DNA of 64,000 nucleotides from Candidatus Shapirobacteria bacterium (GCA_043817235.1 JBDRHA010000011.1:191769-255768), one strand, 5' to 3'; positions 41,978-64,000 are shown, counted from the first letter of the stretch. The notes: a model not told the origin generated them from the sequence alone. Translations and numbers: made by a program.

Positions 41978-42716
41978 TTTCCTCCTTTTCCTCTCCTTCT
42001 TTTTTCTTTTTATCTCTCATTAAAACTAGAGGAACTTCGCCTTCCTTTAAGGGGAGCTCCGAGGTATTAATTTTTTCCTGATTATAAATACTGTAGAAAA
42101 AACCTACTAACTGAGCAGTAGTCAACTGTCGAGCGCGCAGCCCCAAGCTTCCTAAAGCCCGAACAACATGCTCTTTTTTGGGCTCCAAATTTGCTTTGGC
42201 TCGTTCAATAATCGCTCTTTTTTCCAAAGGCAAAGCCTGCACTTCTTCCTTGGGCTTAAAAAAAGAAAAAAGAGGAATACTGTTTTTGGCCGCGGCCAGC
42301 CCCAGCTCCAGACTGGAAAAAGGAACAGCAACATAAAAAGACTTGGTCAAAACATTATTTTTCTCTACCATCTGAGAAACAAACTGGCGGTAATGGGCAA
42401 TTTGTTTTCTCGCTAAAGAATCGGTCTTTTTTTGCTCCCAAGAAAGGAGATAATCAAGGTAAGAACTAACATCTTTAAGTGCCGAGTGAATGAAAATTTG
42501 CAAAGGAAAAGACAAGGAATTGAGCAAGGAAGCATAAGCATAAATCATTGCCTCCTGCTCTCGCTCAGAAAGGAGGTCAAAATTAACAGAGGACACTTCA
42601 AAAACATAAGCACAAGAGCCATCTTTAAGAATGACCATATTTTGAGCAATATCCTCAATCGGCAAATATTCTTGGGTAGTTCCTTTAAGAGCTTTTTTCT
42701 TTAAATCCATGGGCAA
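41967..42716 (-). CDS. T4SS-associated protein resembling a VirB4 N-terminal domain (possible split VirB4 or accessory subunit)
   Basis: segment MVILKDGSCAYVFEVSSVNFDLLSEREQEAMIYAYASLLNSL matches the CagE/TrbE/VirB4 N-domain pattern; overlaps the ATPase start by 11 nt. Confidence 0.4.
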   Translation of the reverse strand: MPMDLKKKALKGTTQEYLPIEDIAQNMVILKDGSCAYVFEVSSVNFDLLSEREQEAMIYAYASLLNSLSFPLQIFIHSALKDVSSYLDYLLSWEQKKTDSLARKQIAHYRQFVSQMVEKNNVLTKSFYVAVPFSSLELGLAAAKNSIPLFSFFKPKEEVQALPLEKRAIIERAKANLEPKKEHVVRALGSLGLRARQLTTAQLVGFFYSIYNQEKINTSELPLKEGEVPLVLMRDKKKKEGEEKEENEA

Positions 42717-42725
42717 GTTTTATTT

Positions 42726-43580
42726 TTATGCCAACGCCGTCTTTTTCGCTTGAATCTGTAATGGGGGAATAATTTTCCCTTTGGTCTCAATTTTAATTAT
42801 AGCAAAAGAAAAAGGCTCTTTTTCCACCAAAACTAAATATTGACCATTTGGCAAGGGGGTAGCTGTTTGAAACTGTCCTAAAGAATTAGAGCGCATTGCT
42901 CTAATTGGATTGCCCTCTAAGTCTTGAATCTCCACAATTGCTCCCTCCAAAGTCCTGCCTTCCAGATCCATTATCAAACCATTAATTATATTGGGAACCG
43001 TGGGAGTAGCCGGAAGAGATATTTTTAAATACTCCGGAGAGCTGGACTCCAGTTTTTGCTTTGGTGTATTTTTCCTAATCATTTGAATGATTTCGTCCGA
43101 AGAAGGGCTCCCCTCTTTTTCTGAAGGTGGCAAAATTGTTTCTTGTTTTTCTTTTTCCTGAACGACTGGGGCGGGCGGAATAACCCTTTTTTCCGGTACT
43201 TTTGGCGTCTTAGCCGGATTTTCTACCGGAGTAGAAAGAACCTGGCTAAAAACCGGCACAGGGGTCGGCTTGTAAAAAGAATATTTGGGGAAAAAGGGCT
43301 TTTTCCAAATAAATACAGTGGGAGAATAAGCCGCCCGAAAAAAAGAAACCAGCCAGTATTCCAAGGGCCTGTCGTTAAAAGGCAGAAAGGCTGTCCCTAT
43401 CCCCAACAAAAGAATAGCCAAGCTCAAAGGAAAACGCAAAACAGAAGTCAGGCCAGAATGAAAAAGCAAATAGGCAAAGACAACCCCCGCTGCTAGTTTT
43501 AAAAATTGGTTTAAAGTCATGCTTCCTACTAAACGAAATTCGTAAGAGGATATTTCTTGTGGTATTGGGTACTGGTTCAT
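42726..43580 (-). CDS. VirB3-like membrane protein with Pro/Thr-rich linker and C-terminal carboxypeptidase-regulatory-like beta-sandwich domain
   Basis: two N-terminal TM helices immediately upstream of VirB4 (position typical of VirB3/PrgI); C-terminal LEGAIVEIQDLEGNPI...GQYLVLVEK resembles a CarbopepD_reg fold. Confidence 0.45.
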   Translation of the reverse strand: MNQYPIPQEISSYEFRLVGSMTLNQFLKLAAGVVFAYLLFHSGLTSVLRFPLSLAILLLGIGTAFLPFNDRPLEYWLVSFFRAAYSPTVFIWKKPFFPKYSFYKPTPVPVFSQVLSTPVENPAKTPKVPEKRVIPPAPVVQEKEKQETILPPSEKEGSPSSDEIIQMIRKNTPKQKLESSSPEYLKISLPATPTVPNIINGLIMDLEGRTLEGAIVEIQDLEGNPIRAMRSNSLGQFQTATPLPNGQYLVLVEKEPFSFAIIKIETKGKIIPPLQIQAKKTALA

Positions 43581-46738: not shown

Positions 46739-47161
46739 TCAGGCAGAAATAATTTTTTTTGGCTCCAGTCTTTTTATTTTCAGCTTATCAAAATCCTTGT
46801 CATAAGAAACAATTGTCCATTTTCCCGTTTGGATTTCTTTAATCGAAGCAAGTAGAGCATCAATGTATTTAACCTTCTTGCTCTCAAATAACTGCAAAGC
46901 CAATAAATGATCATACTTATCCATAATATTTAAACCCTTCAGGTTCAATATTCCCCTTACCGACAAAGCTACTTTTCTCGGAGCAAATTCATAGTATGAA
47001 GAAAGCGCCCAAGCAATTTCCGCTAAAACCAAACTGGCAGTTATGGCTTTAATCTTGCCCGCTTTTACCTTTTGCAAAAACCGCAGGCAATCATTAAACA
47101 CAGCTTCATTCTCTTTTATTAAAACTCTAAGAAATATATTAGTGTCAATAAAATATTTCAT
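46739..47161 (-). CDS. vapC: PIN-domain toxin VapC
   Basis: start taken at MKYFIDTNIFL (conserved Asp of PIN domain); ~140 aa; immediately downstream of an AbrB/SpoVT-type antitoxin gene. Confidence 0.7.
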   Translation of the reverse strand: MKYFIDTNIFLRVLIKENEAVFNDCLRFLQKVKAGKIKAITASLVLAEIAWALSSYYEFAPRKVALSVRGILNLKGLNIMDKYDHLLALQLFESKKVKYIDALLASIKEIQTGKWTIVSYDKDFDKLKIKRLEPKKIISA

Positions 47162-47162
47162 A

Positions 47163-47405
47163 TTAAAAGCGCTTATAAATTTTCTCCATCTTGGAGCGTG
47201 CTTCAAGAACCCCTTTTTTCTTGGAAGATTTAAGCGAGCCAGCTAAGTCTAAAATATCAATTTTCTTTTTAATTCTAATCAATTTTTTCTTTCTATCTAC
47301 CAGCTCCAATAGAAAACTGCCCGGTTCCTTAAGATCCAACAAATCCCTTATTTCCTTGGGTAAAGTCATTTGCCACTTTTTGGTAATCGTAGTACTTTGC
47401 AACAT
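47163..47405 (-). CDS. vapB: AbrB/MazE/SpoVT-family antitoxin VapB
   Basis: 80 aa; swapped-hairpin motif TKKWQMTLPKEIRDLLDL. Confidence 0.65.
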   Translation of the reverse strand: MLQSTTITKKWQMTLPKEIRDLLDLKEPGSFLLELVDRKKKLIRIKKKIDILDLAGSLKSSKKKGVLEARSKMEKIYKRF

Positions 47406-49026: not shown

Positions 49027-49053
49027 TAGATTATTTTATCATGGCAAAAAAAG

Positions 49054-49127
49054 TGGACGCGCCAGGACTCGAACCTGGGACCTCTTGCTCATAAGGCAAG
49101 CGCTCTCACCGACTGAGCTACGCGTCC
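49054..49127 (-). tRNA. tRNA with anticodon TAT (UAU; tRNA-Ile reading AUA), no encoded CCA
   Basis: manual fold: acceptor GGACGCG/CGCGTCC, D-arm GCTC..GAGC, anticodon stem CTTGC/GCAAG with loop CTTATGA, T-arm CCAGG TTCGAGT CCTGG; 74 nt. Confidence 0.7.
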
Positions 49128-49314: not shown

Positions 49315-50782
<1,468 letters not shown>

Positions 50783-51599: not shown

Positions 51600-51902
51600 T
51601 TAGCCGGTAAGAATACTAATCCCAAAAATCACTTCGATAGCCCGGATAATAAACCAAGATAAAAATACTACTACAAAGCCCACAATTCCCATCATTACTC
51701 TGCTCCGGCCGCTGGCTACTTTCTCCGGGTTGCCCCCGGAAACCATCATTTCAAACCCGCCAAAAATAATCATTACTAACATAATTATTCCCGCCAGAGG
51801 AATGATATATTTCCACAATTCGGTAAAAACACCCGCAATATCAGTAAATTTAGCAGATACTGTAGAGCTTGGAATATCAAAATTAGCGGCATGAACTTTC
51901 AT
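51600..51902 (-). CDS. VirB2/TrbC-like two-helix pilin-family protein (paralog 1)
   Basis: 100 aa; hydrophobic helix - loop SGGNPEKVASGRSR - hydrophobic helix ending IRAIEVIFG; same architecture as seven other ORFs in the window. Confidence 0.55.
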   Translation of the reverse strand: MKVHAANFDIPSSTVSAKFTDIAGVFTELWKYIIPLAGIIMLVMIIFGGFEMMVSGGNPEKVASGRSRVMMGIVGFVVVFLSWFIIRAIEVIFGISILTG

Positions 51903-51911
51903 GTTATTAAT

Positions 51912-52670
51912 TTAATAATTTAATCCCGGCAAGCTTAATAAATCTACTCCAATGAATCTTAACAGAAAAAGAGAAAAAATCATAAAAAGCAGGCCGGAAA
52001 TTGCGCTTGTTACATAAGCTTGGCCTTGTTTTACTTTCTCCGGGTTGCCGCCGGAGGTAATAATCTGAAAAGCGCCAAAAATCATCAAAAGCAAAGCAAT
52101 TCCGCCGGCAATCCCCATGAAATTCCCAAAAAACCAATTAACAAACTCACTGGTATTATTAATCGGAATACACCCCAAAGCAGTATCAATACCGGTCTCA
52201 CCATTACAAAACCCAGGAAAAAAAACCGAAGTTCCTGGCGTTGGGGTAGGGGCAATAGTGAACATGCTTGAAATTTCGCAGGTATGGTCGTGAGTATCAC
52301 AAACCAGACCAGAAGAACATGTTCCACCTGGGCAGCAATTGTCGCCTACCGACATACCGCAAGCTGGCGTTGGGGATCCGTAATGACAGCCCACGCAAGT
52401 TGTAGGGGTTGGCGCAGGAGTTGAGACAGAAGTTGGCGATGGAGTTGGAGTTATTACTAAGGGAGGAGTAGGTGTATTAGCCGGAGGTTGACAATAGTGT
52501 TCGAAACAAGTAAATGCTGGCGCACCGCAACAAGGCACATTACCATCTCCACAATCATGATAATTATCTATACAATCTGCAGCGAAAGATTTCAGGGGAG
52601 AAATAGAAGCTACAAATAAAAAAAGCGCAAAGAAAAATATCTTTCTAATCACAATTTTTAAATTACTCAC
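51912..52670 (-). CDS. pilin-family protein with N-terminal signal peptide, two Cys-rich modules and Pro/Thr linker fused to a C-terminal two-helix pilin domain (paralog 2)
   Basis: signal peptide; CIDNYHDCGDGNVPCCGAPAFTC... and CVGCHYGSPTPACGMSVGDNCCPGGTC... modules separated by TPTPP repeats; C-terminal GAFQIITSGGNPEKVKQGQAYV...LLRFIGV pilin-like domain. Confidence 0.55.
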   Translation of the reverse strand: MSNLKIVIRKIFFFALFLFVASISPLKSFAADCIDNYHDCGDGNVPCCGAPAFTCFEHYCQPPANTPTPPLVITPTPSPTSVSTPAPTPTTCVGCHYGSPTPACGMSVGDNCCPGGTCSSGLVCDTHDHTCEISSMFTIAPTPTPGTSVFFPGFCNGETGIDTALGCIPINNTSEFVNWFFGNFMGIAGGIALLLMIFGAFQIITSGGNPEKVKQGQAYVTSAISGLLFMIFSLFLLRFIGVDLLSLPGLNY

Positions 52671-53547
52671 TCTTTTTAGATTTTTCTTTTAAGTATTTAA
52701 CTATTAATTGGGCAATGTCTAAATTGGCACGCTTTTCCATCACATAAAATTCCGGGGCTTGGTTCACTTCAATTACTACCGGCTTGTTATTTCTTTTATC
52801 CATCACCAAGTCAACACCGGCAATTTCCACACCCAAAATTTTAGCTGCCTTTTCGGCTTCGGCAGCCACATCCTCAGGGATTTTTTCTAAAATTTGGGAG
52901 CTGCCCGCCGAGCGATTCAAAATCAATTGTTTTTCTTTAGCCTGGCGTTTAAAACCGGTAATAACTTTATAACCGACTAAAAACAAGCGATAATCGCCAT
53001 CATTGGGAATATAATCTTGAATTAAAAAGTTAATACTTGTCCGACCTTGCAAAACTCTATTTAACGCTAAATCGTCCTCGATTAAAAAGGTTCCTTGGCC
53101 ATGCCGGCCGGCCGTAGATTTTATAACCACCGGCTTCGGCTCAGCTTCCACCACTTTTTTAAGATCTTCCCGGTCAGAAACAAAACTGCTTTTCGGATAA
53201 CTCACTCCAGCCCGCAGCAACATTATTGCCTCCGAAGATTTTCTTTTTCGAAAAGCGCCGCCTAATTTGTTCAAATAGTCATCAACTATCGGAATTTTAT
53301 GCTCTTTGGCATATTCCAAAAGCAAAGGCAAGTGCTCATTTTTATCTCCCACTGAGCGAAAATAAAATAAAGAAAAATCCTTTAAAGGCTGGTCTTGAAA
53401 ATAGATCTCCCATTCTTTTTGGATTCCCTCAATTTTAAGAGCTGAATAATGAATAGGAACAAGATCAATTTCTTCTTTTTTAGCCGCCTTAACTAACTTC
53501 TCACCGGAATCAGTCCAGGCCGTATAAAAAAAGGCAATTTTTTTCAT
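52663..53547 (-). CDS. RimK-family ATP-grasp ligase (alpha-L-glutamate ligase-like)
   Basis: 294 aa; ATP-grasp core VVIKSTAGRHGQGTFLI...DYRLFLVG...GVDLVMDKRNNKPVVIEVNQAPEF. Confidence 0.7.
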   Translation of the reverse strand: MKKIAFFYTAWTDSGEKLVKAAKKEEIDLVPIHYSALKIEGIQKEWEIYFQDQPLKDFSLFYFRSVGDKNEHLPLLLEYAKEHKIPIVDDYLNKLGGAFRKRKSSEAIMLLRAGVSYPKSSFVSDREDLKKVVEAEPKPVVIKSTAGRHGQGTFLIEDDLALNRVLQGRTSINFLIQDYIPNDGDYRLFLVGYKVITGFKRQAKEKQLILNRSAGSSQILEKIPEDVAAEAEKAAKILGVEIAGVDLVMDKRNNKPVVIEVNQAPEFYVMEKRANLDIAQLIVKYLKEKSKKSE

Positions 53548-53585
53548 TTGTTGATTATTATTTATTTCATTCTAACACAAAGCCT

Positions 53586-54914
53586 TTAAACTGCAGGGCC
53601 GGTAGTCACCGGCTCCGGCTTGACCAAAAATCCACCCAGATCCCGCCGGCCAATAAGCATTGGCGTATTTAGATGCGAGCGCTTGGTTACATTGGCTGCG
53701 GTTTTAATTTTCCGTCCCTTTAAGTAAAAGGTCAAAGCAATCACCGGCCGCTCGTGTTTGCGAGCTAAAGCCGAGCGATAGTGCCGATAAAAAAGAATAT
53801 TATCCGGATCAAGCAAGCCCAATCCCTTAGCAAAATCCTCGTCAATTGAAGAGCGTAGAGCGCCAGTATCAATTTTGGCCAAAAGCTCGTGACGCTTGCC
53901 CTTTTTCCCTTTAATTTTAACGGTTTCCAAAACTTCTACAACTTTAATCCCCTCTTCCGCCTTTACTTTATCCACAAAGCTTTCGCCAAATAGAGTTTGG
54001 GCAATTTTTACCGCATGATCGACATTCCTGACCTTCAAGCCTTCGGCTTTTTCCAAACGAATGCGCAATCCTGCCCGATTACTTATTTGAATCGATAACC
54101 CCGGCCGAGCATTAAGCTCCACCACCATTGGCCCTTTATCTTTATCCAAAAAAATATCCGCCCCAAAGTAACTCAACCCTTCTATAGCAAAAGAGCATTC
54201 TATGCTCGTTTGCAAAATTCTTTTCCACTCAGGAATTTTAATGCCATTAACTTTTATCCACTTTTTTCTTTTTAAATCAAAGATTTTCGTTATTATTTGC
54301 TGTTTTCCCTGCACACCATAAGTAGTAATGCCGGTGGCTAAATCAATACCTAAACCAATCGCCCCCTGCTCCAAGTTAGCCTTGCCGCGTGATTCCTCGG
54401 TAGGGATGCGCATCATGGCCATCACCGGAATTTTATTGTAAACTACTACCCGAATGTCCGGGGTGCCGGTTTTGGTAAAGCGCAAAAACTTGGGATGAAT
54501 TTTTACTCGCTCTTCCACTAACACTCGATCAGGAAAACCACCTAAGCTATACCGGCCTTCTAAAATATCTAAACAATGATAATGCAAATCAGAGATGCCC
54601 ACTTTTGTGCCATCCGCCAAAAACCATTCTCCGGCAAACTTGCCTTTTTTCTTGACTACCCACACCCCCTGCCCACCCGAACCGGAAGTTGGCTTAACAA
54701 CAAAGCTTGTGTCTGCCTCCTGCCAAGAAAAGCCGCTTACCTGGCGCGGATTTTTAAAAAGAGCAATTAGTTTGGGAACCGGAATACCGGCTCTGGCAAG
54801 CACTTTTTTGGTCCAGGCTTTAGAATTAGCAATTGACCGGCCGCGCGAAGAATTTTTGCGCAGATAAGTCATGGAGCGAATATTTTTAGTAAGAACTTCG
54901 TTTTTAGAAGCCAC
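53586..54914 (-). CDS. ATP-grasp ligase fused to a C-terminal retropepsin-like (DUF785-type, D-T-G-A) protease domain
   Basis: N-terminal ATP-grasp FVVKPTSGSGGQGVWVV...DIRVVVYN...GPMVVELNARPG; C-terminal LLAKIDTGALRSSID aspartic-protease-like motif. Confidence 0.6.
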   Translation of the reverse strand: MASKNEVLTKNIRSMTYLRKNSSRGRSIANSKAWTKKVLARAGIPVPKLIALFKNPRQVSGFSWQEADTSFVVKPTSGSGGQGVWVVKKKGKFAGEWFLADGTKVGISDLHYHCLDILEGRYSLGGFPDRVLVEERVKIHPKFLRFTKTGTPDIRVVVYNKIPVMAMMRIPTEESRGKANLEQGAIGLGIDLATGITTYGVQGKQQIITKIFDLKRKKWIKVNGIKIPEWKRILQTSIECSFAIEGLSYFGADIFLDKDKGPMVVELNARPGLSIQISNRAGLRIRLEKAEGLKVRNVDHAVKIAQTLFGESFVDKVKAEEGIKVVEVLETVKIKGKKGKRHELLAKIDTGALRSSIDEDFAKGLGLLDPDNILFYRHYRSALARKHERPVIALTFYLKGRKIKTAANVTKRSHLNTPMLIGRRDLGGFLVKPEPVTTGPAV

Positions 54915-54919
54915 GCTTT

Positions 54920-55807
54920 TTACCTTTCTAAAACCGCCTTAAATCGTTTGTGCTCCAGCAAACGCCAGCCCGTGTATTTGCCAATAAGCAAATTCAAAAC
55001 CAAAACAGCCAAAAAAGAAAGTTCCGGATTAAGTAAAACCAGCTCTTGAAGTTTTTCCCAAGCCATTAAAGAAGCACCTAAAATGGAAATTACTAAGGTG
55101 CCAATAGTTAAGCTCATCGCGCTTCTTTTAGATTTTCCCAGCTGAACGCGGGTAAATTCTTCGGAAAGCAAAATAAGAAAGAGGATCGGGAAAATAGAAA
55201 TTTGAGTTAAATCAAGAAGGCTCAAAGAAGGAGAAACTGCCAAAAAGCCAAAAGTAATTAAAGAAATAATCATTAAAGTAATCGCTCTTCTTGGCCAGTA
55301 AAAGATTTTTACTTTTTTCAAGCTCCGGCCGGCCAAAACCGTAGAAATTAAAATTACCGCAAAAAGAAAAAGGCCGCCGACAATTCCGGTGGCCAAAAAA
55401 GTAATGGCAATCATCGCCGGCATAAAAATGCCAAAACCAGGAACGCCAATGCCGTACTGAACTGCACCCACCAGAGCCCCTACCAAAGGAAGAAGTAAAA
55501 TCAAAATAATAGTGTTAGCCGGCACACCGCGGCTAACGGCAAAACGAACACTGTATTTTAAAAAGTTATCTAAAGAAAGCGGCCCTAGATTTTGCTCGTC
55601 TAAAAGCGCTTCCAGCTTGCCTTTGGTTTTTATATTCTTAGGCTCAGTAATATTTTCTTTAACAGCTACTGTAGTAGGTATTGCCGAAGCAGTTGATTCC
55701 TGTCCTTGGGGCTCAAGACTAGGGTTAGGAACAATAGTGACCGCGCCAGCCGGCAAAGCGAAAAGAAAAAACAAAGCAAGAAATAGCACTAGTTTTTTAG
55801 TAAGCAT
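54920..55807 (-). CDS. 7TM-type membrane protein with N-terminal signal peptide and extracellular domain (7TM-receptor partner of ATP-grasp systems)
   Basis: signal peptide, ~90-aa extracytoplasmic region, then about seven hydrophobic helices; first gene of the three-gene operon with the two ATP-grasp enzymes. Confidence 0.5.
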   Translation of the reverse strand: MLTKKLVLFLALFFLFALPAGAVTIVPNPSLEPQGQESTASAIPTTVAVKENITEPKNIKTKGKLEALLDEQNLGPLSLDNFLKYSVRFAVSRGVPANTIILILLLPLVGALVGAVQYGIGVPGFGIFMPAMIAITFLATGIVGGLFLFAVILISTVLAGRSLKKVKIFYWPRRAITLMIISLITFGFLAVSPSLSLLDLTQISIFPILFLILLSEEFTRVQLGKSKRSAMSLTIGTLVISILGASLMAWEKLQELVLLNPELSFLAVLVLNLLIGKYTGWRLLEHKRFKAVLER

Positions 55808-55891
55808 GGGCTTATTTTATCAGGAAACAGGCAAAAAAACAGTAATTTGAAGATTTTTCGACAAAAATATTCCTTGGGCATTAGCATAAGC

Positions 55892-55922
55892 TTAGCAAAT
55901 TCCAACCACTTATGCTATAATT
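55892..55922 (+). promoter_or_regulatory. candidate promoter -35 TTAGCA (55892-55897) / -10 TATAAT (55917-55922) giving a leaderless or near-leaderless mRNA for the 55931 ORF
   Basis: perfect -10 hexamer 8 nt upstream of the ATG; no Shine-Dalgarno sequence. Confidence 0.4.
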
Positions 55923-55930
55923 TTGGCTAA

Positions 55931-57859
55931 ATGACAAGCGAAAGAGACGGCCTTCCCCCAGACGAAATTCTTTCTCGGTATGCCGATGAAGAGGACAGAG
56001 GAGGGAAAAAGGGTAAAGAGCATTTCAGAACTTCTATTGGAACCCACGTCGAAGGAGCAATTGATCACTTTAATCGGATGACCACGGAAGAACTGGCGTC
56101 CAATGAAGAAATACTTTCTGCGTTTAGAGAAACTGTATTCGACGCGATTGCTTTTTACGAGGGTCTTCCCGGAACAAGCGGGTATAATTTTGATCGTCCA
56201 GCTCTAGATGCTGAAGCCCGAAGAAAGTTATCAGGAGAAGAGCGGAAACAAATTGAGCAACAAATCAGAAGGTCAAGACTACAAACAATGCTTTTTGAAC
56301 GCTTGTTTCTTTCCCGCGAAGGATCCCGCGAAAGACCTTATTCCTATGTCTCGGCAAAAATAGAAGAAGCAACTTTTGAAAGACGCTGGCGAATAGATCA
56401 AGAAAGAAAAATACGAGCCCGAGAAAAAGATAGGGGGCCGATCAGCAGAGAGCAACAAAAGGCAGAGGAAAATTTAGAAACAGAGCTTTTTGCTCTTTAT
56501 CTTCATCATGAGGCGCGAACACTAATAGACGAGGCTTTTAAGCAAAGACAATTTTATGCTGAAGATTCTGGCTCTACTAAAGAGGCTTTAAGCCGAGGAA
56601 AAACTATTGATTGGCGAATTCCTATTTATCCCGATCGAGTCGATTGGGCCGCTGCCTTCACTGAAATTGTCGCCAGCAAATTCGGCGATAAGGTCGATAA
56701 AACATTGCGAAAAATAGTTGATATTGGCGAACGCGGGCTTAAGAAAAATGGAGAAACCTTAATTGAGCACCCATACGCTGAAGGAATTGTTAAAACCGAG
56801 CACTTTACTGAATTTATCAAACAAATTTATGAGGCGGCTGATCAAGATATGGGCGCTGCCTGGTTAAGTTGGCGTTTAGCTTTGCTCTGGGAAATACCCA
56901 GTAAGTATGGAGTAGCTATTAAGAAAAAGCCGCTAACGCTTCCAGACGGGAGAGAGATAGAGGGATATATTCCGGTAGTCGGCGACGCTCCTTTGACCGC
57001 AGATTGGTATTCCAGTACAGCATTCTTGGATTTTGAACGATTTATTGAAGGCGGCTGGTATATTGATCCCAAGGACGAAGCCGGCAAAAAAAAACTTGAG
57101 GCTTCTCTTCAGGATCCGGCTAAACTAAGAGAGCTCCTTACAGCTCATCGCCACTTGGTAGAAATGTTTTACAACAAGATTGGCCTGCCTCTAAACCTAG
57201 GCAGAATCGGCTCCATTGCACCGGCCACCTACTTAGAGAGCGCCAAAGGGAAATTCGCCAAGAAGGACGGTAATGGCAATATTATTAGAAACCAAAATGG
57301 AGAACCGGTACTTGAAGATAAGCCCACCAGTTTTTGGCAAAAATGGAGAGAAGGGGTGCCATTAAAAGATCTGCCTTGGTGGGAAACGGAGCAAGTGGCT
57401 ACAGGAACCGAAGAAGCTACGCCTACCGGCTCCTTTCAGTTTTGGGCTTTTGTCAACCGTATCCGCGCTCTCTCGATTGCTGATCTGGTCACCAACATGC
57501 CCGGTCCTCAAGATTTAGTAGATTTTAAAACTTGGAAAAGTCTAGCGAGAAACTGGTCAAAATTAAAACTTGACCAAGACGCAAGGAAATGGCTAATTCT
57601 TTCCTGGATTTACCCCTACGTCGGCTTAATAAATAACTATGGAACTAAAGAAGCGGAAAGAGATCTTGGAGCTAGAGTCTTAAATATGGGAGAGCAAATG
57701 GGAGATTATCCCTTAACAAACGCAAAGCCCGGCATGCCAACCATAGACTCCGCTCTAGCAAACGCTTTCAGGGCTAAATTTATTACCAAAGAAGATATTG
57801 ACTGGATAAAAAAGACTATCTCGAAAAAACCAACCGAGATAGTTTCCCTCAGAGATTAA
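55931..57859 (+). CDS. large hypothetical cytoplasmic protein, Arg/Glu-rich, no recognisable domain
   Basis: 642 aa, no signal peptide or TM; higher GC and Arg content than surrounding Lys-rich genes; only plus-strand gene in a 13-kb minus-strand block. Confidence 0.5.
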   Translation: MTSERDGLPPDEILSRYADEEDRGGKKGKEHFRTSIGTHVEGAIDHFNRMTTEELASNEEILSAFRETVFDAIAFYEGLPGTSGYNFDRPALDAEARRKLSGEERKQIEQQIRRSRLQTMLFERLFLSREGSRERPYSYVSAKIEEATFERRWRIDQERKIRAREKDRGPISREQQKAEENLETELFALYLHHEARTLIDEAFKQRQFYAEDSGSTKEALSRGKTIDWRIPIYPDRVDWAAAFTEIVASKFGDKVDKTLRKIVDIGERGLKKNGETLIEHPYAEGIVKTEHFTEFIKQIYEAADQDMGAAWLSWRLALLWEIPSKYGVAIKKKPLTLPDGREIEGYIPVVGDAPLTADWYSSTAFLDFERFIEGGWYIDPKDEAGKKKLEASLQDPAKLRELLTAHRHLVEMFYNKIGLPLNLGRIGSIAPATYLESAKGKFAKKDGNGNIIRNQNGEPVLEDKPTSFWQKWREGVPLKDLPWWETEQVATGTEEATPTGSFQFWAFVNRIRALSIADLVTNMPGPQDLVDFKTWKSLARNWSKLKLDQDARKWLILSWIYPYVGLINNYGTKEAERDLGARVLNMGEQMGDYPLTNAKPGMPTIDSALANAFRAKFITKEDIDWIKKTISKKPTEIVSLRD

Positions 57860-57867
57860 GGGCTTGA

Positions 57868-59520
57868 CTAAACACCAAGCTTTTTTCTCATCCCGCCAAC
57901 AAAACCAGTCATTGTCTCTTTTACTGCAGTCCTTCTGGCACCAGCGCCAGCACCGACAACTCCTGCTGCTCTAGGATACTTGGCAACAAGTTTATTGAAG
58001 AATGCATCTTGAGCTCCTTGGCTTTCGGCATAGGAAGCTGCTGCACTCATTGCTGTTCCCCCCATGATCTTTACCGGAGCAAAAGCCGCGCCGATCATGC
58101 CGCCAATGCCAGAGTCCTTAATTCCAAATGCTCCTCGAACAATGTCGGGCACATTAGGAAGAATCAAAAGAAACCCAATTCCAATAATTGACTTCACAAA
58201 AGCCCCCGCAACCGCTCCGCTAATTGCGCCAAAAATCGGAAGATCCGGCGGACCCATCAAGGGCGGGTACCACATAGCTCCACCTTGCACAACACTAAAA
58301 CTAATCGCTGAACCAATAATAATGACCAGGATAACAGCCGGGAAAACTAAGATATTGGCGGCCAAGTTTTTGAGCCAAGAACCAAAGCCTCCTGGTGATC
58401 CGGGAATGACCCCAACAGCAATTAAAACCGGCGAAAAAATTATCGATAAAACAATGTTAATGTAGGTTTTTATTAAAGCAATTAAAAGCTTGAAGAAAAG
58501 AAAAATAGCAATAAGAATCCAGGCCAAAGCAAAGAGCAAGCCGCCGAGACCCGCGGTAGCAAGACTTGGAAAAATAGTAGCTCCAATTATGGCACCCAAT
58601 AGAGAGAAGAAAGGGAAACCACCTATCAAAGCGCCAAATACCGCTACAAAACCTCCTTGTGTTGCCATCCAATTAGCCGCTGTCTGATTCACAAGGTAAG
58701 GACTCATTATCCCGCCTCCGGCAGAAGACCTTAGAATAGCAATGCTTAAAGCAATAACCACGTACATTAAATCAATCATAAATCCGGCAATCGCGTAAGA
58801 GAAGGTAATAAGGACCAAAACTCCTATCAGTCGAGGCAAAGCGTTTTCTACCGTTAAAACAGTCTGAGGAGAAATCTTGACTCGAAACATAATCATTAAG
58901 CCCACTATTAGCATCGCCACAGCGAAAATAGAATAAGCCACATTACGAAATGCTTGCCAGATAGGCAAAATTGGTTCCAATCCCGCAAAACCAATCCCAT
59001 TGGCCGCGTAAGCAGGAGCGGCTCCTAAACGATGCAAAAGATTATAAGCATAATATACTCCGGAAGCAGGAGGATTTTGATACATAGAGGCGATCAGCTT
59101 TGTGGTGACCCCCATCGCTCCGCCGGAAAAATACCAATCACCAGGAGGCATTAATAGCGCGCCAGGAGGTAAAGAAGAGGGGTTGCTTGCGTTGTTGGGA
59201 TCATAGGTCTCCTCTGCTGTGCCAAGCACGGCGGTAATCAAGGCCTTAGCAGCTAACAGCATTAATCCTTCGCTTTCAAATTCCTCCCCTCCATCTACCA
59301 TTCGGCCCACTAACCAATGGGCCAAACTCGGAACTGGATCCCTTAGAAAACCAGTAAACTTTGTGAATTCCTCCTTAATGCCTAAAACCTCTCCTTGGCT
59401 GGCCTGAGTTGAAGAAGAGGGTAAACTCGAAACTGCATCTGCTTTCCTCGTTAAGCCAAAAAATAAAAAACCCAGGCTTAAAAAGAGCAAAGCTATAAAC
59501 AGAAGTATTTTTTTTCTCAT
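57868..59520 (-). CDS. VirB6/TrbL-like polytopic membrane protein
   Basis: 550 aa; signal peptide, ~200-aa periplasmic domain, then at least six Gly/Ala-rich TM helices; located between the pilin-like gene arrays. Confidence 0.4.
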   Translation of the reverse strand: MRKKILLFIALLFLSLGFLFFGLTRKADAVSSLPSSSTQASQGEVLGIKEEFTKFTGFLRDPVPSLAHWLVGRMVDGGEEFESEGLMLLAAKALITAVLGTAEETYDPNNASNPSSLPPGALLMPPGDWYFSGGAMGVTTKLIASMYQNPPASGVYYAYNLLHRLGAAPAYAANGIGFAGLEPILPIWQAFRNVAYSIFAVAMLIVGLMIMFRVKISPQTVLTVENALPRLIGVLVLITFSYAIAGFMIDLMYVVIALSIAILRSSAGGGIMSPYLVNQTAANWMATQGGFVAVFGALIGGFPFFSLLGAIIGATIFPSLATAGLGGLLFALAWILIAIFLFFKLLIALIKTYINIVLSIIFSPVLIAVGVIPGSPGGFGSWLKNLAANILVFPAVILVIIIGSAISFSVVQGGAMWYPPLMGPPDLPIFGAISGAVAGAFVKSIIGIGFLLILPNVPDIVRGAFGIKDSGIGGMIGAAFAPVKIMGGTAMSAAASYAESQGAQDAFFNKLVAKYPRAAGVVGAGAGARRTAVKETMTGFVGGMRKKLGV

Positions 59521-59558
59521 TCCTTTATATTAAAAACTAAATTCCATTCAAAATCAAG

Positions 59559-61745
59559 TTACCACCCGGGCGGGGTGAGAATATCAAACATATAATTATA
59601 AGTATCGTCTTCTCCTTTAGTTCCATAATTTGTGCCTTTCTTTCTGCCTGGCTGATCAGAATACTCAATTTCTATTTCCGCCGCCTCATATTCATGAGCC
59701 TCGCCTGGCAGTGTAAAAGGCATAGATACCGGCTGGCGGTAAATAATTTCCGCTGATTTTGTCCAGGGCGTATGGATAATTGGAATAATAACATAAGTAT
59801 TGCTTTCGAAAATGGGCTTTAAGATATTATTAATAAGCTGCGTTACCCAATCTCCCCAATCTAAAATGATCCTTAAAGCTCCTCCAACAGAAACCGGTTG
59901 TTTATCCATTATCCCTCCCAAATCATAAGCGCCTATCTCGCAAGTTGGCGGATCAGGCATAGGAATATCCTGAGCTCCAGTAAAAGAACAATTGGTCTCT
60001 CCCGCTACAACAGTACAATTACTGCCAATAGCCGGGTGGCCTGACGGGTACTGCACTTGATCATCAGAACCATAGTTATAATTAACTACTTCTAGATTAA
60101 ACGAGCAGTTTTCTCCTAAAGGGCAATTGAAAGTATGCGAATAAACATTAGGCGCCGCACCCGGGCCAGGAACCGCATTAATGCCTAAAAACTCACCATT
60201 CATACTCACCCACATATGGCCATTTCTTACGTTACCGTTAACACTAACCGTGCAGGTAACACTGGATCCTGAACGAGAACAACTGGATGAAGAGTCAAGA
60301 ATAAAATTAAATTCGCCGGAATTTCCCGGAGCCAGCAAAACATATCCTTCCTGTTTTTCTTTTTGACTGAAGCTGCTTTTCTGGAAAAGTCCTGCGCTAG
60401 CACTTAAAGGATGGGCAATGTTCATTCCTGGTAAGGAAAAATAATCGCCTACCTGATAATTAGCCGTAGCCATCTGCTGGTAATAAGCAGGAGCTTCAAA
60501 CCAAAGCATTTCATCACCCAGCTTTCGAGGCCATTCTTTTTCATCCTTTTTACAATAATAAAATTCCACAAAGCCTTTGCTTTTTTCTATTTTCGTCTTA
60601 TTTTCTTCCTCCGGCAAAATTATTTTTTTTAAAGCTTCATCCGAAGAACTGCCAACCGGTTTAATATTGGCTACTTCGAAATATTCCAACATTAATTCTT
60701 TCACTGTTTCTTTAAGATCCCCTTCACTTCCGCTAATTTCAAAGGCCTCACCCAAAGTCTTGCCATAATCGTCGCCCAAGCCCAAGCCTCCCGGACCGGA
60801 GAGGCCGATTAAGGAAAAGTCGCCGTATTCCGCTACCTGCCAGTTGCCATTGGCATCCTTGTACATAAAATACTGTTTGCCGGTTTGATCATCCATAAAC
60901 AAGAAAGTAATCGCATCCGCCGGTATTCCCGCTGCTTCCAGCTTTGTCGCAAATTCCCGAGCACTATTAAGGCGCGACTGAATATCTACTCCCGGGTTTA
61001 AGCCAGCCTCAGGAATAATAAAAGTTTTTCCGGCCAAATTAACTCCCAAGCTTTCTAGACTGGACCGGAAATTATTAAATTGATTAACAAAATCAGCGAC
61101 GGCCGCATCCATATTTCCGCCGCTGTAATCAGCGTAAAAACTGCCGGCCCAAACCGGAATCTGGTTTAAGCAATCACCAGAGCAATAAGATTGAACTTGG
61201 CGCAAAAACTCCACATACTGATACATCGATCCGCCAAAGGGGTTTCCACCCGTAGGATTACTGGTATTAAAATTAGTAGTGCCAACAGGCACGCTGATTC
61301 CGTTCGCCGGGTTTAAAGCCATTTCCAAAATCCGAGCATATTCTTGAGGATTGCCGCCAAAATAATTATATTCTGTAAAAAGACTGATTGTTCCCGTGTT
61401 TATTTGGGAAAGCTGGGGCAGCCAGTAGCTTTGAAACTCTGAAGCCGAAGTCGTGTGCCAATCTTCCGGCTGCCAAATTATTTCTACATTATATTCAGCG
61501 GCCGCTCTTTCAATATTTTCAATTAAGCCCGGAAAGGCTCTAAGCTCCGAGGAAACTAATCGAACCGTAGCCGATCCATTTTGCAAACGCTCAAAGGCCG
61601 CCGTGTTAAAAGTGCCATTAGGACTGTAAAAATTGTTGACAATATTATAGCCAAAGTCATTGACGCTATCTGCTAAAGCCAAAGAAGGAAAAGCAAGGGG
61701 TAAAAAAGATGCCACAATAAAAACCAAAACCCAGAGTTTTCTCAT
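59559..61745 (-). CDS. secreted Cys-rich hypothetical protein (N-terminal half possibly glycoside-hydrolase-like TIM barrel)
   Basis: 728 aa; clear signal peptide MRKLWVLVFIVASFLPLAFPSLALA; many Cys in the C-terminal half (CSRSGSSVTC, CPLGENC, CTVVAGETNC). Confidence 0.45.
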   Translation of the reverse strand: MRKLWVLVFIVASFLPLAFPSLALADSVNDFGYNIVNNFYSPNGTFNTAAFERLQNGSATVRLVSSELRAFPGLIENIERAAAEYNVEIIWQPEDWHTTSASEFQSYWLPQLSQINTGTISLFTEYNYFGGNPQEYARILEMALNPANGISVPVGTTNFNTSNPTGGNPFGGSMYQYVEFLRQVQSYCSGDCLNQIPVWAGSFYADYSGGNMDAAVADFVNQFNNFRSSLESLGVNLAGKTFIIPEAGLNPGVDIQSRLNSAREFATKLEAAGIPADAITFLFMDDQTGKQYFMYKDANGNWQVAEYGDFSLIGLSGPGGLGLGDDYGKTLGEAFEISGSEGDLKETVKELMLEYFEVANIKPVGSSSDEALKKIILPEEENKTKIEKSKGFVEFYYCKKDEKEWPRKLGDEMLWFEAPAYYQQMATANYQVGDYFSLPGMNIAHPLSASAGLFQKSSFSQKEKQEGYVLLAPGNSGEFNFILDSSSSCSRSGSSVTCTVSVNGNVRNGHMWVSMNGEFLGINAVPGPGAAPNVYSHTFNCPLGENCSFNLEVVNYNYGSDDQVQYPSGHPAIGSNCTVVAGETNCSFTGAQDIPMPDPPTCEIGAYDLGGIMDKQPVSVGGALRIILDWGDWVTQLINNILKPIFESNTYVIIPIIHTPWTKSAEIIYRQPVSMPFTLPGEAHEYEAAEIEIEYSDQPGRKKGTNYGTKGEDDTYNYMFDILTPPGW

Positions 61746-61763
61746 GCGCTAATTTTAGGGTAT

Positions 61764-62114
61764 TTATTGAGGGATGGCAAATTCAGTGACCTCAACGCCA
61801 GTAAAATTCTTAATAAATACTAAAATAAACCAGGCAAGAATCGCTAACACTAGGCCAAAAATAGCCATAGTAAACGTTCCTCTGGCCTTTTGCGCTCCTT
61901 CTTGGCTGCCGCCGGAAGTCAAAAGCTGAAATCCGCCAACAATAATCATTACTCCGACAGCCAAGCCCAGCAGACGCAACGCAACTCCCAAGATATTTTC
62001 GACCATCCCTTCAATATGCGCAAAAGTTGCCACATCCGCTTGAGCCCAGACCGAAGAAGCGCCAAAAGCCAGGTAAGCCACTAAGCATAATAGCCAAGCT
62101 TTAGTTTTTTTCAT
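61764..62114 (-). CDS. VirB2/TrbC-like pilin-family protein (paralog 3)
   Basis: signal peptide plus two hydrophobic helices flanking the loop TSGGSQEGAQKARG. Confidence 0.55.
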   Translation of the reverse strand: MKKTKAWLLCLVAYLAFGASSVWAQADVATFAHIEGMVENILGVALRLLGLAVGVMIIVGGFQLLTSGGSQEGAQKARGTFTMAIFGLVLAILAWFILVFIKNFTGVEVTEFAIPQ

Positions 62115-62153
62115 CTTGCCAATAATTGGAACTAAATTCCCTAATCTAATCGC

Positions 62154-62507
62154 TTAGAAGACTGTTGGGAACGTCAAAGTCTCCAAAAGATCAATTCCAA
62201 AGACCGCTTGAATTAATCTTAAGATAGCCCAAGCGCTAAATACTACAACCAAGCCAACTAAGGCATTTTGTACTTGGCCCTGAGCTGTCTTGACTTTGGT
62301 CTCATCACCCTCGGACATGATCCACTTAATTCCGCCTAAAACCAGCATTACAAAAAATATTAGACCGGCGCCAATCAGCAGAAAATTAATTACGCCTTTA
62401 ACTAAATTAGAAACGTTTACCTGATCAAGTTTGTCAAATTGGTTAGGCGCATTTAAATCAATAGTCTTGTCGTCAGGAGCAGCCAAAACTTGATTTACTA
62501 AAGACAT
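62154..62507 (-). CDS. VirB2/TrbC-like pilin-family protein (paralog 4)
   Basis: two-helix architecture, loop MSEGDETKVKTAQGQVQNAL. Confidence 0.55.
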   Translation of the reverse strand: MSLVNQVLAAPDDKTIDLNAPNQFDKLDQVNVSNLVKGVINFLLIGAGLIFFVMLVLGGIKWIMSEGDETKVKTAQGQVQNALVGLVVVFSAWAILRLIQAVFGIDLLETLTFPTVF

Positions 62508-62592
62508 TTTATTCTTTCACCTCCTCTCGATTTATAATTTATTTACTTTTTAATAATAACGAGATAATTCTTGCTTTGCAATTAGCAATTTA

Positions 62593-62943
62593 TTAAATAA
62601 GCGGAATTAGCGGAATACCTAAGCCTTGCAACTGGCTAATCCCAAAAATAAAGCCAATCAGCTTAATTAAAGCATAAACGGAAAAAATAATCACTAAGCC
62701 AATTAAGGCGTTTTGGACTTTATCGCGAGCCGCTTTTACTTTAGTCTCGTCCCCTTCAGAGCCAATCCAGGAAATTCCGGCTAGTAAAAACTGGATAAAA
62801 AAGAAAATAATCGCCACCGTTAAAAAAATGCCAATAACCCCGCTAATAATTTTATTTTGAAAAAGATCAGCAGCTGCCGTATGATCCGGCGTTCTTAAAG
62901 GGTTAGCATCCGGAATTAAAGGATTTTCAAGTCTGCCAGCCAT
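62593..62943 (-). CDS. VirB2/TrbC-like pilin-family protein (paralog 5)
   Basis: loop GSEGDETKVKAARDKVQNAL; ~70% identical to paralog 4 in the C-terminal half. Confidence 0.55.
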   Translation of the reverse strand: MAGRLENPLIPDANPLRTPDHTAAADLFQNKIISGVIGIFLTVAIIFFFIQFLLAGISWIGSEGDETKVKAARDKVQNALIGLVIIFSVYALIKLIGFIFGISQLQGLGIPLIPLI

Positions 62944-62945
62944 GT

Positions 62946-63311
62946 TTAAAAATCAAAAAACGTAGTAATAATATTAAGATCAAGCAAATCAATTCCGCCC
63001 AGCAAATAGCCAAGCAAGCCGACAAAAGCCATAGCCAAGAAAATAATCGTAATCCCTAAAACACTTTGCCAAAGCGTTTGCTGGGCGGCCTGCACTTTTT
63101 GAGCATCTCCGCCAGCCGTCATCCAGCCAAAGCCAGCCAAAACAATCCTGATCACAAAATAGACTACGGCCGCTAAGGTAATAAAGCCAATTACTCCGGA
63201 AAGGACTGTGGCTGTTCTACCCACCGGATTATTGGTAGGCTGGCCAATATCACCCGCCCCCCGGAAGGGAGTGAAAAACACTTCATCAACTGTCGCCAAA
63301 AGCTTATTCAT
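62946..63311 (-). CDS. VirB2/TrbC-like pilin-family protein (paralog 6)
   Basis: loop TAGGDAQKVQAAQQTLWQSVLG. Confidence 0.55.
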   Translation of the reverse strand: MNKLLATVDEVFFTPFRGAGDIGQPTNNPVGRTATVLSGVIGFITLAAVVYFVIRIVLAGFGWMTAGGDAQKVQAAQQTLWQSVLGITIIFLAMAFVGLLGYLLGGIDLLDLNIITTFFDF

Positions 63312-63313
63312 TT

Positions 63314-63700
63314 TTATTGTGGTCTATAAAGTCTAGGAACCAGTAAAAAGCTAGTGTCCTTGAAAATAATTTGGCCGATCAAGCCAGCCAAAATAAAAGA
63401 AGAGGCAACAATGACTAGACCTAATAAACTTTGCCAGATTTTGGCCCATGCCGCCTCAATTTGATCAGAATTGCCACCGGCACTAATAAAGCCAAAGCCG
63501 GCAAATATTAGGTTAAACAAAGTAAAAATTCCCGCGCCGAAAATAAGCAGTTTAATAGCAATGCCAATAAAATTAAATAAACCAGCTGGTGTGCCCGTAT
63601 CTCCTCCAGATAAAGGTGCGATTGCCGCCGGCGGCTCAATATTGCCAATAGTTGCCGCAAAAAAAAGATTTCTATATTTTTCCAGTTTCAACCTTTTCAT
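63314..63700 (-). CDS. VirB2/TrbC-like pilin-family protein (paralog 7)
   Basis: loop SAGGNSDQIEAAWAKIWQSLLG. Confidence 0.5.
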   Translation of the reverse strand: MKRLKLEKYRNLFFAATIGNIEPPAAIAPLSGGDTGTPAGLFNFIGIAIKLLIFGAGIFTLFNLIFAGFGFISAGGNSDQIEAAWAKIWQSLLGLVIVASSFILAGLIGQIIFKDTSFLLVPRLYRPQ

Positions 63701-63704
63701 TCTT

Positions 63705-64000
63705 TTAAAGCCCGGAGTTAATAATACTTGCTCCGGTAATTACCTCTATCGCTCTTACTATAAAATAACTTAAAATTATTAAAATAAAGCCTAAAAGTGC
63801 CGCCCCAATTGCTTTCCCCCCTTGCTGAACTTTGCCACTGTCTCCACTGCCAGCTCCTACAATCATACCCCAGCCCCCAATAATAATCAAAATCAAGAAA
63901 ATTAAGGCGGCAACAGCATAAGCATTAGCAATAAGAGTGGAAACTAAGTGGCCAGGATCGGTAAACTTTACCTTGTAAAAAGTGCCAATATTAAAAGCCC
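63705..64000 (-). CDS. VirB2/TrbC-like pilin-family protein (paralog 8), 5' end beyond window
   Basis: the reading frame stays open upstream of the listed TTG start to the window edge (..DPGHLVSTLIANAYAVAALIFLILIIIGGWGMIVGAGSGDSGKVQQGGKAIGAALLGFILIILSYFIVRAIEVITG). Confidence 0.5.
   Translation of the reverse strand, partial: AFNIGTFYKVKFTDPGHLVSTLIANAYAVAALIFLILIIIGGWGMIVGAGSGDSGKVQQGGKAIGAALLGFILIILSYFIVRAIEVITGASIINSGL

Follow-up and report, generated by a model that had tools for sequence, protein, structure and literature searches.

Eight VirB2-like pilin classes in a chromosomal type IV secretion locus of Candidatus Shapirobacteria

Why should a bacterium keep eight different pilin-like genes close to one type IV secretion system (T4SS)? 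This question is raised by a 64,000-nucleotide stretch of a Candidatus Shapirobacteria genome (GCA_043817235.1 JBDRHA010000011.1:191769-255768), hereafter the window, which belongs to the Microgenomatia within the candidate phyla radiation (CPR, or Patescibacteria). A first-pass annotation, made from the sequence without knowledge of its origin, had rightly guessed a small-genome bacterium and had placed at least eight pilin-like open reading frames (ORFs) on the minus strand; the eight listed are all present, the last being open to the end of the window. We consider it probable that these eight are the complete VirB2-like (PF18895) pilin set of a chromosomal, monoderm-type T4SS. They belong to this family, share a two-helix hairpin with a conserved, positively charged loop, stand in the context of T4SS genes, and fall into fixed classes. 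By analogy with VirB2, they would also form a pilus and may serve in host attachment. By function, a VirB2-type pilin is one that loses its leader and builds an extracellular T4SS pilus as a polymer, which contains phospholipid where the structure has been solved.

Arrays of this kind have been published. The T4SS of Southlakia epibionticum, which includes a series of predicted pilins, was found to be essential for epibiotic growth (Wang et al. 2023, PMC10633639), and VirB2-like pilins were reported in 1,948 Patescibacterial assemblies, where 441 arrays with 2-11 genes each, the majority from Microgenomatia and Saccharimonadia, have 25% mean and 54% maximum identity (Quinonero-Coronel et al. 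2025, PMC12102498). The variability of these arrays was suggested to aid adaptation to host strains (PMC12102498). As such arrays were described in 2023 and 2025, the one in the window belongs to a published kind. It resembles them in its PF18895 membership, in its tandem divergent paralogues beside VirB6, PrgI, TrsD, and VirB4, and in its chromosomal position with no relaxase nearby, Patescibacterial clusters of this monoderm type being usually devoid of both a relaxase and a coupling protein; the six genes of S. epibionticum correspond to the core array here, and the published identities match those of the window.

The eight genes and their protein family

The genes are listed below under the class names used throughout; for each p class, the array position given is that of its best match, with the number of loci out of 33 other six-gene arrays.

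51600..51902, minus strand: pilin class E2, partner of E1 (PF18895, 45.7 bits)
51912..52670, minus strand: pilin class E1 (PF18895, E 5.7e-5; AlphaFold2 hairpin)
61764..62114, minus strand: pilin class p6 (PF18895, 37.3 bits; position 6 in 32/33 loci)
62154..62507, minus strand: pilin class p5 (PF18895, 36.6 bits; position 5 in 31/33 loci)
62593..62943, minus strand: pilin class p4 (PF18895, E 1.8e-4; position 4 in 17/33 loci, position 5 in 12/33)
62946..63311, minus strand: pilin class p3 (PF18895, E 6.9e-4; PF04956 TrbC, E 1e-3; position 3 in 28/33 loci)
63314..63700, minus strand: pilin class p2 (PF18895, E 1.1e-3; position 2 in 33/33 loci; C-terminal tail conserved)
63705..64000, minus strand: pilin class p1, first of the six-gene array (PF18895, E 1.9e-4 for the 96-residue open frame; position 1 in 33/33 loci; as the frame is open to the window end, the 5' end is missing)

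PF18895 (T4SS_pilin) is the top Pfam family for all eight (E 7e-12 to 1e-3). Three of them (E2, p6, and p5) exceed the gathering score of 26.6 bits, while the other five reach 19.4-23.5 bits (E 5.7e-5 to 1.1e-3). The eight can all be aligned with each other, and a profile made from them recovers just these among the 623 six-frame ORFs of the window, with no ninth pilin (next match, E = 0.58). The same profile finds 84,034 relatives among 1.84 billion representatives.

The shared architecture that had been described for these ORFs is found in every one of them. Each has two hydrophobic segments around a conserved loop, for which most follow the consensus [SA]-[GE]-G-[DNS]-x-x-[KQ]-[VI] (SGGNPEKV, SGGNPEKV, SGGSQEGA, SEGDETKV, SEGDETKV, AGGDAQKV, AGGNSDQI, and AGSGDSGKV), and each ends in a short Gly-containing tail. 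The tails are hydrophobic and carry an x-[IW]-P-[STG]-[LF] motif. Only E1 and p6 begin with a hydrophobic segment like that of a classical signal peptide (in the latter at residues 6-24, with the signal peptide ending in VWA before QAD), the rest having hydrophilic leaders. Among orthologues of p1, p3, p4, p5, p6, and E2 the leader is very short and conserved, e.g., MNLIKP[IV][YF]A or M..LLA, so that a conserved mature N terminus follows an ending of the type KP[IV][YF]A or LLA. These leaders are unusually short for signal peptides; in their place, a Sec signal peptide of full length is found in certain orthologues within the same class.

The eight paralogues are only 16-54% identical in their cores, the highest value being that of p4 and p5 (54%). 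At the DNA level, a repeat search found a single 56-nucleotide loop-coding stretch to be recognisably common to the pilin genes, which indicates old paralogues and gives no evidence of recent duplication or gene conversion.

The helical hairpin was predicted with AlphaFold2 for E1 (252 residues; 23 homologues). In the model, a signal helix is followed by Cys-rich modules that are poorly defined and contain small beta hairpins, by another beta hairpin where the C155-C167 loop lies, and then by a confident helical hairpin of residues 173-205 and 210-244 joined by a four-residue loop (pLDDT of 85-91), as the first-pass annotation had expected. Compared by Foldseek with 350,542 PDB chains, the E1 hairpin has its best match in the conjugation pilus subunit of Aeropyrum pernix (8dfu; probability 0.87, E 0.39), with an alignment of 81 columns that covers nearly all of the 84-residue target. 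A significant structural match was not to be expected, because the hairpin has only 70 residues.

Two further observations concern the form and expression of these genes. The best matches of the pilin profile among the 1.84 billion representatives (P0169-P0318) are poly-pilins, i.e., single polypeptides of 2-17 tandem hairpins, such as P0169 (552 residues, 6 hairpins) and P0178 (1775 residues, 17 hairpins); their internal repeats are more alike than p1-p6 are among themselves, and P0169 (L167:1777-3435) sits within an ordinary array of single pilin genes. In the window, the sole long gap of the six-gene array is the 85 nucleotides before p5 (62508-62592), which hold a strong Shine-Dalgarno sequence, GGAGGTGA, and a promoter-like match. 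Ribosome-binding-site strength was tried as a guide to the major pilin and pointed to p5 through this GGAGGTGA, but it was rejected as the strong Shine-Dalgarno sequence occurs in just 13 of 77 loci. Promoter and terminator scans were at chance level (21 found versus 22.0 expected, and 18 versus 19.6, respectively).

Positional orthology and the split of one set

Whether these paralogues are interchangeable variants or separate proteins was examined in two sets of loci. For the genome set, one genome per species was scanned with an alignment of the VirB6-like protein encoded downstream of the array, which gave 80 loci, where named mostly from Microgenomates lineages. The metagenome set comprises 35 uncut arrays reached independently from the ATP-grasp gene of the neighbouring operon. 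Pilins lie upstream of the VirB6 homologue and on the same strand in 54 of the 58 genome-set loci with at least 6 kb of upstream sequence, the modal number being six (32/58).

Each position of the array finds its counterpart in other genomes. In 33 clean six-gene arrays plus the window, best matches fell on the like position in 1120, 1120, 906, 626, 1063, and 1110 of 1122 cases each for positions 1 to 6; at position 4, the non-matching cases mostly go to position 5. The metagenome set gave 1168/1168 for five positions and 1101/1168 for p4, and every one of its uncut arrays (35/35) has exactly 6 genes. In this set, orthologues share 47-62% identity, compared with 32% between the paralogues of one array and 41% between VirB6 proteins, with p5 as the most conserved class (mean orthologue identity of 62%). 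Hidden Markov models of the classes also recover E1, E2, and p1 to p6 in this order, as eight tandem genes, in loci L025, L027, L059, and L085. Like-position orthology, together with an orthologue identity above that of both VirB6 and the paralogues, indicates a fixed ancient set and not a diversifying repertoire. By these comparisons, the eight are orthologue classes conserved in sequence and gene order across Microgenomatia.

The diversified repertoire of the first-pass annotation is thus replaced by ancient, order-conserved classes. Its expectation of diversifying selection in the loop turned out to be the reverse of what is seen, as the most conserved columns within classes are the loop and the helix ends, and the least conserved are the N-terminal region and the tail. 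The published Patescibacterial account, in which the arrays are variable and adapt to host strains, differs in the same way from the orthologous classes in fixed order found here. A fixed set of distinct proteins also agrees with transposon sequencing in S. epibionticum, which scored all six pilin genes (SEML1_0014-0019) individually as growth-defect or essential (PMC10633639, Table S1). An order-conserved grammar of eight classes with positional orthology is absent from the literature that we searched.

The neighbours of the two arrays are as had been described, but the idea of two arrays bracketing an island has to be revised. E1 and E2 stand directly before p1-p6 in L025, L027, L059, and L085, and E2 follows E1 in L013, L083, L084, L085, and L087. 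The order seen in the window (VirB6, a convergent 642-residue gene, 7TM, ATP-grasp, RimK, E1, E2, and uppS) recurs in its closest relatives, L013, L083, and L087. As E1-E2 are contiguous with p1-p6 elsewhere and the window order is that of close relatives, we can read the two arrays as one canonical eight-class set that, judged by gene order, was split by rearrangement in one clade. In another group of loci, which includes several with the titles Pacebacteria, Paceibacterota, or Woesebacteria, VirB6 is accompanied by E1-E2 alone.

E1 is the most unusual member of the set. Its 16 Cys residues include the two Cys-rich modules with Pro/Thr linkers that had been noticed earlier: module 1 has the spacing C-x6-C-x6-CC-x6-C-x4-C (residues 33-60) and is followed by a Pro/Thr linker, and module 2 has 8 Cys (residues 92-131) and is followed by the second linker. 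A C155-x11-C167 loop with TAxGCIP lies directly before helix 1. Common to its 39 homologues are an invariant Cys loop (C-x10-14-...TAxGC[IV]P), a conserved hairpin, and a tail of the form IGVD[IL]L.[IL]PG; the heads vary in length and cannot be aligned, the total length ranging from 153 to 436 residues. A hypervariable N-terminal head on a conserved hairpin fits surface display, although nothing places E1 at the tip, where the first-pass annotation had put it as an adhesin. Locus L086 (6951-16189) has three E1 copies, each with a different head, and its pilin array is interrupted by toxin-antitoxin-like genes (YafQ-, BrnT-, CopG-, and AbiEii-like).

Secretion genes and the Rlo-like operon

The neighbours first described as a VirB6-like membrane protein, a secreted Cys-rich protein, a seven-transmembrane (7TM)/ATP-grasp operon, and a VirB3/VirB4 module 8-10 kb away are all found:

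59559..61745, minus strand: 728-residue secreted protein with 10 Cys and a signal-peptide-like N terminus, between p6 and virB6
57868..59520, minus strand: VirB6 homologue, a 550-residue polytopic membrane protein (fold match to TrwI)
55931..57859, plus strand: 642-residue protein without signal peptide, convergent with virB6
54920..55807, minus strand: RloB-like 7TM protein (PF14402 7TM_transglut, E 5e-26; RloB profile positions 297-507 of 508)
53586..54914, minus strand: fusion of an RloC-like ATP-grasp ligase with a retropepsin-like (RloA/RimB-like) domain (PF14397, E 2e-59; PF05618, E 2.4e-8; TIGR02291, E 4e-74)
52663..53547, minus strand: RimK-family, alpha-L-glutamate-ligase-like ATP-grasp protein (PF08443, E 4.5e-26; TIGR00768, E 6.7e-35)
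42726..43580, minus strand: PrgI/VirB3-like protein with a C-terminal CarboxypepD_reg-like domain (PF12666, E 2.1e-5, 25.4 bits versus a gathering score of 27)
41967..42716, minus strand: TrsD-like protein that resembles the N-terminal part of VirB4 (NCBIfam TrsD, E 1.1e-8, 35.2 bits versus a cut-off of 200)
40136..41977, minus strand: VirB4 ATPase of the monoderm (CD1110/CTn2) type (conju_CD1110, 376.9 bits versus 325; PF19044, E 1.7e-29)

The six genes p1-p6 (from 64000 down to 61764) form a tightly packed, co-oriented string with the genes of the 728-residue secreted protein and the VirB6 homologue. The latter has no Pfam family at E <= 0.01, TrbL included, and no PDB sequence match; none of its 120 listed homologues has a Pfam domain, and the family is seen only in CPR-type contigs. 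The top six Foldseek matches of the protein are all R388 TrwI, so that we assign it to VirB6 by predicted fold and not by sequence profile. VirB6 has been reported as scarce in Microgenomatia, and a structural assignment of this kind is absent from the literature searched.

The VirB4 ATPase falls in the monoderm clade by profile score. The PrgI and TrsD matches beside it are weak, but the genes are in the expected order, and their homologues in L002 match PF12666 (PrgI) and PF26593 (TraC-like, for TrsD), the same two-domain PrgI protein preceding virB4. Pilin, VirB6, and VirB4 components are contiguous in L002 and in about 20 loci of the genome set. Of the 44 loci in this set that extend 9 kb or more downstream, 22 have PrgI-TrsD-VirB4 there.

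The genes around virB6 have little annotation. The 728-residue protein, encoded 18 nucleotides after p6 and 38 nucleotides before virB6, has no Pfam, NCBIfam, or PDB sequence match and just 9 homologues among 5.8 billion sequences; its slot holds a large unannotated gene also in L001, L002, and L085. This gene is fast-evolving, and no other secreted component of the locus varies as much as its product and the E1 head do. The 642-residue protein likewise has no Pfam, NCBIfam, or PDB match, and its gene ends 8 nucleotides from the virB6 stop. As homologues keep the same convergent position in at least eight related loci (L001, L003, L005, L006, L009, L010, L083, and L087), this gene is a conserved partner of virB6.

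The 7TM/ATP-grasp operon, which the first-pass annotation had counted as part of an attachment module, is by its profile matches an Rlo-like system, i.e., an RloB-like 7TM protein, an RloC-like ATP-grasp protein fused to a retropepsin, and a RimK-family ligase. The 7TM protein matches only the 7TM part of the RloB profile (54.9 bits versus a cut-off of 900), has no transglutaminase-like domain, and passes PF14402 (92 bits versus 25). The ATP-grasp fusion reaches 249 bits against TIGR02291 (cut-off, 314). Its protease domain matches the RloA2 profile (E 1.1e-5) and PF05618 (34.4 bits versus 27), and its retropepsin D-T-G-A motif is invariant in 16 orthologues; unlike RloA, it has no signal peptide.

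The rloABC/rimABK systems of Pseudomonas have the same four components, namely, a 7TM RloB-type protein, an RloC-type ATP-grasp protein (TIGR02291), a retropepsin-like DTG protease, and a RimK-family ligase. In Pseudomonas aeruginosa, rloABC affects hypo-osmotic tolerance, biofilm formation, and cell shape, and RloB has been described as 96% proteobacterial (PMC12239564). The operon of the window differs in that its 7TM protein lacks the inactive transglutaminase domain, its protease is not secreted but fused to a cytoplasmic ATP-grasp protein, there are one or two additional RimK paralogues, the scores are all below the equivalog cut-offs, and the genes are tied to T4SS pilins.

This tie is close. 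In the window, the 3' end of the RimK gene overlaps the start of E1 by 8 nucleotides. A metagenome scan from the ATP-grasp gene gave 80 loci, of which 57 were informative; in 52 of these, the six-pilin array is divergently adjacent to the 7TM gene, and the distance between the two is 40-160 bp in the genome set. The remainder consists of L087, which is window-like, L093, which looks window-like and is cut off after the ATP-grasp gene, L089, which at the same length of 22,945 bp appears to be the contig of L003 with the operon about 9 kb from virB6, and two loci with too little upstream sequence. The operon is co-directional with E1-E2 in the window, L013, L083, and L087, and it is inverted and about 8-9 kb from virB6 in L001 and L003/L089. 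The linkage thus spans lineages whose VirB6 proteins are only about 41% identical and survives three gene arrangements. We regard this as strong contextual evidence for a functional link between the operon and the T4SS pilins, for which no paper combining both was found in the literature searched.

As for what the link could be, we tentatively put forward, as an idea that we would not yet favour, that the operon is dedicated to maturing or modifying the T4SS pilins or the structure that they build. Its activity may be the processing of pilin termini (ATP-dependent peptide ligation, cyclisation, or amino-acid tailing) or the modification of the cytoplasmic loop. Acidic C termini, the RimK-type target, were looked for in each pilin class and none was found; the tails are the same in Rlo-linked and unlinked arrays.

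Other genes of the window can be noted here. Two class A penicillin-binding proteins (transglycosylase plus transpeptidase) are encoded at 33713-35857 and 37887-40121, both on the minus strand, and the second, which begins 14 nucleotides after virB4 in the same orientation, may therefore share a transcript with the T4SS ATPase module. A 411-residue protein (45464-46699, minus strand) has a twin-arginine-like motif, SRRQFL, followed by a hydrophobic stretch; it could not be assigned to a family and matches the N domain of a sialic-acid-binding adhesin weakly (E 7e-4). A PIN-domain toxin and a MazE-type antitoxin (46739-47405, minus strand) lie between the T4SS module and the 16S gene. The 16S (49315-50780, plus strand) and 23S (27773-30671, minus strand) rRNA genes are unlinked, about 18.6 kb apart on opposite strands, which fits a CPR genome; a tRNA-Ile gene with anticodon UAU (49053-49127, minus strand) adjoins the 16S gene, and no 5S gene was found in the window. 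Many third-party-annotated records of metagenome-assembled genomes with this CPR-type locus are titled 'uncultured Gammaproteobacteria' or 'Pseudomonadales', and one 'Woesearchaeota', probably placeholder or wrong labels.

Filament, ring, or repertoire

How would such a set work? We propose that the short leader is removed, as the conserved leaders of the orthologues suggest, and that the proteins would then take an N-out/C-out position in the membrane, with a cytoplasmic loop, a topology that rests on the basic loop, the positive-inside rule, and the analogy with VirB2; it agrees with the classical signal peptides that E1 and p6 have. Extraction of the pilins and their assembly would fall to the VirB4 ATPase and the VirB6 platform, and the product would be a heteromeric tube in the form of a pilus or a stalk. 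Its inner face would consist of the conserved loops, with the variable termini and the hypervariable Cys-rich E1 head facing outward, where they could bind the host cell. Each class may have its own non-redundant place in the structure.

Known filaments of this type show both likeness and difference. With the VirB2/TrbC/TraA pilins of diderms (T-pilus, F-pilus, and R388 TrwL), the set shares a leader, a two-helix hairpin, a basic loop, the company of VirB4 and VirB6, and, presumably, membrane extraction and assembly on a VirB6 platform. It differs from them in its scores below the PF04956 cut-off, its monoderm host, its eight classes instead of one major pilin, and the lack of a VirB5 homologue. 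Ced pili are not known to contain more than one pilin. With the archaeal Ced/Ted pili, represented by 8dfu, the set shares its best, nonsignificant structural match, the lack of a relaxase, and, for Ced, a VirB4-family ATPase (weak CedB match, E 1.4e-10), but no Ced-specific components were found here. A role in DNA import has been discussed for CPR T4SSs (PMC11665869).

Several points weigh against a pilus made of VirB2-like subunits. The first-pass reading of the eight as VirB2/TrbC pilins holds for PF18895, the best family of all of them, but not for PF04956 (TrbC/VirB2 proper), whose gathering score of 27.9 bits is not reached: p3 comes closest with 19.7 bits (E 1e-3), E2 has 10.3 bits, and the other six have no match. 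The profile of the eight finds no pilin among PDB sequences, its best match being the transmembrane segment of a viral glycoprotein (E 0.36), and homology to VirB2 proper is therefore weak at the sequence level. The structural model covers one paralogue, E1, and its match to 8dfu, although top-ranked, is suggestive and not significant. Leader cleavage, topology, and assembly are steps that we infer. The fused hairpins of the poly-pilins are awkward for polymerisation one subunit at a time. The search for VirB9, VirB10, VirB11, or VirD4 that had been proposed for this genome found none among the large ORFs of the window, and no VirD4 coupling protein, relaxase, or VirB8-11 was found among the 20 other large ORFs, which are housekeeping genes, or among the neighbours. 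T4SSs of other monoderms lack VirB2 (PMC12102498). No pilus of these proteins has been seen in any Patescibacterium, and a 2025 review calls a pilus of the monoderm T4SS an intriguing 'possibility' (PMC12857230).

The main rival to a filament is a heteromeric ring or short stalk, in the membrane or just above it, that forms part of a channel with VirB6; the host would then be contacted by something else, such as type IV pili, the large secreted protein, or the head of E1 carried on a short stub. In Agrobacterium, substrate transfer requires VirB2 whether or not a pilus is formed. A defined complex would accord with eight classes in fixed stoichiometry, and the 6 to 17 tandem hairpins per polypeptide, found even in ordinary arrays (P0169 in L167), look like covalently linked units of a ring or layer; moreover, monoderm T4SSs work without pili (PMC12102498), and no T4SS pilus has been observed in CPR (PMC12857230). 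We nevertheless hold this reading to be rather unlikely. The family is related to true pilins, as the weak PF04956 matches indicate, and two of the six S. epibionticum pilins also match PF04956 (PMC10633639). The best structural match is a conjugative pilus subunit, and variable outward-facing termini with a displayed head fit a surface-exposed polymer more easily.

Much less probable is a repertoire in which the paralogues are major pilins that can replace one another, a diversified stock that serves antigenic variation or adaptation to host strains, a model proposed for the VirB2 arrays of Bartonella and Anaplasma and suggested for Patescibacteria (PMC12102498). Both those pathogens and this host-associated bacterium have several tandem VirB2-like genes, and the intracellular precedent, the 2025 proposal (PMC12102498), the low identity of the paralogues, the hypervariable E1 head, and the triplicated E1 of L086 all speak for it. 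The Bartonella and Anaplasma arrays, however, are regarded as variable and antigenic (PMC12102498), whereas the genes here are ancient, orthologous, and individually required in a relative, as the scores of all six S. epibionticum genes show. Positions are orthologous in two independent sets of loci, all 35 uncut arrays keep six genes, and conservation among orthologues exceeds that of the adjacent VirB6. Within the proteins it is the loop and helices that are conserved, likeness at the DNA level is insufficient for gene conversion, and variability is confined to the head of one class, E1. For p1-p6, the variable repertoire is largely refuted by these results.

That the eight are unrelated small membrane proteins (a holin, a bacteriocin-immunity protein, or another two-transmembrane peptide) that mimic pilins is hardly credible: there are sub-threshold matches to Phage_holin_3_6, MscL, and RseC_MucC, and any such hairpin is of low complexity, but we rejected this identity on profile matches and synteny, with PF18895 best for all eight and above its cut-off for three, the neighbourhood of VirB6 and VirB4 kept in more than 100 loci, and no phage or bacteriocin genes nearby.

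The reading of the eight as the VirB2-like pilin set of this T4SS bears on a machine that, like few others, has been shown to be indispensable to a cultivated Patescibacterium in its epibiotic life. Published work says openly that neither the cargo of these systems nor the role of their many pilin-like proteins is known (PMC11665869). Should the pilins form a fixed set of eight orthologous classes that are not interchangeable, the question shifts from a repertoire for host range to a defined heteromeric structure. The structural assignment of VirB6 fills a gap reported for Microgenomatia, while the E1/E2 pair, the Cys-rich head, and the Rlo-like linkage are not mentioned in the two published studies of Patescibacterial arrays. 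This linkage offers a concrete hypothesis for two systems at once, the pilins of CPR bacteria and the Rlo proteins of Pseudomonas and Vibrio. If the operon does mature the pilins, and the eight-class set holds, the T4SS appendage that CPR bacteria build would be heteromeric and matured by enzymes, and would resemble no pilus characterised so far.

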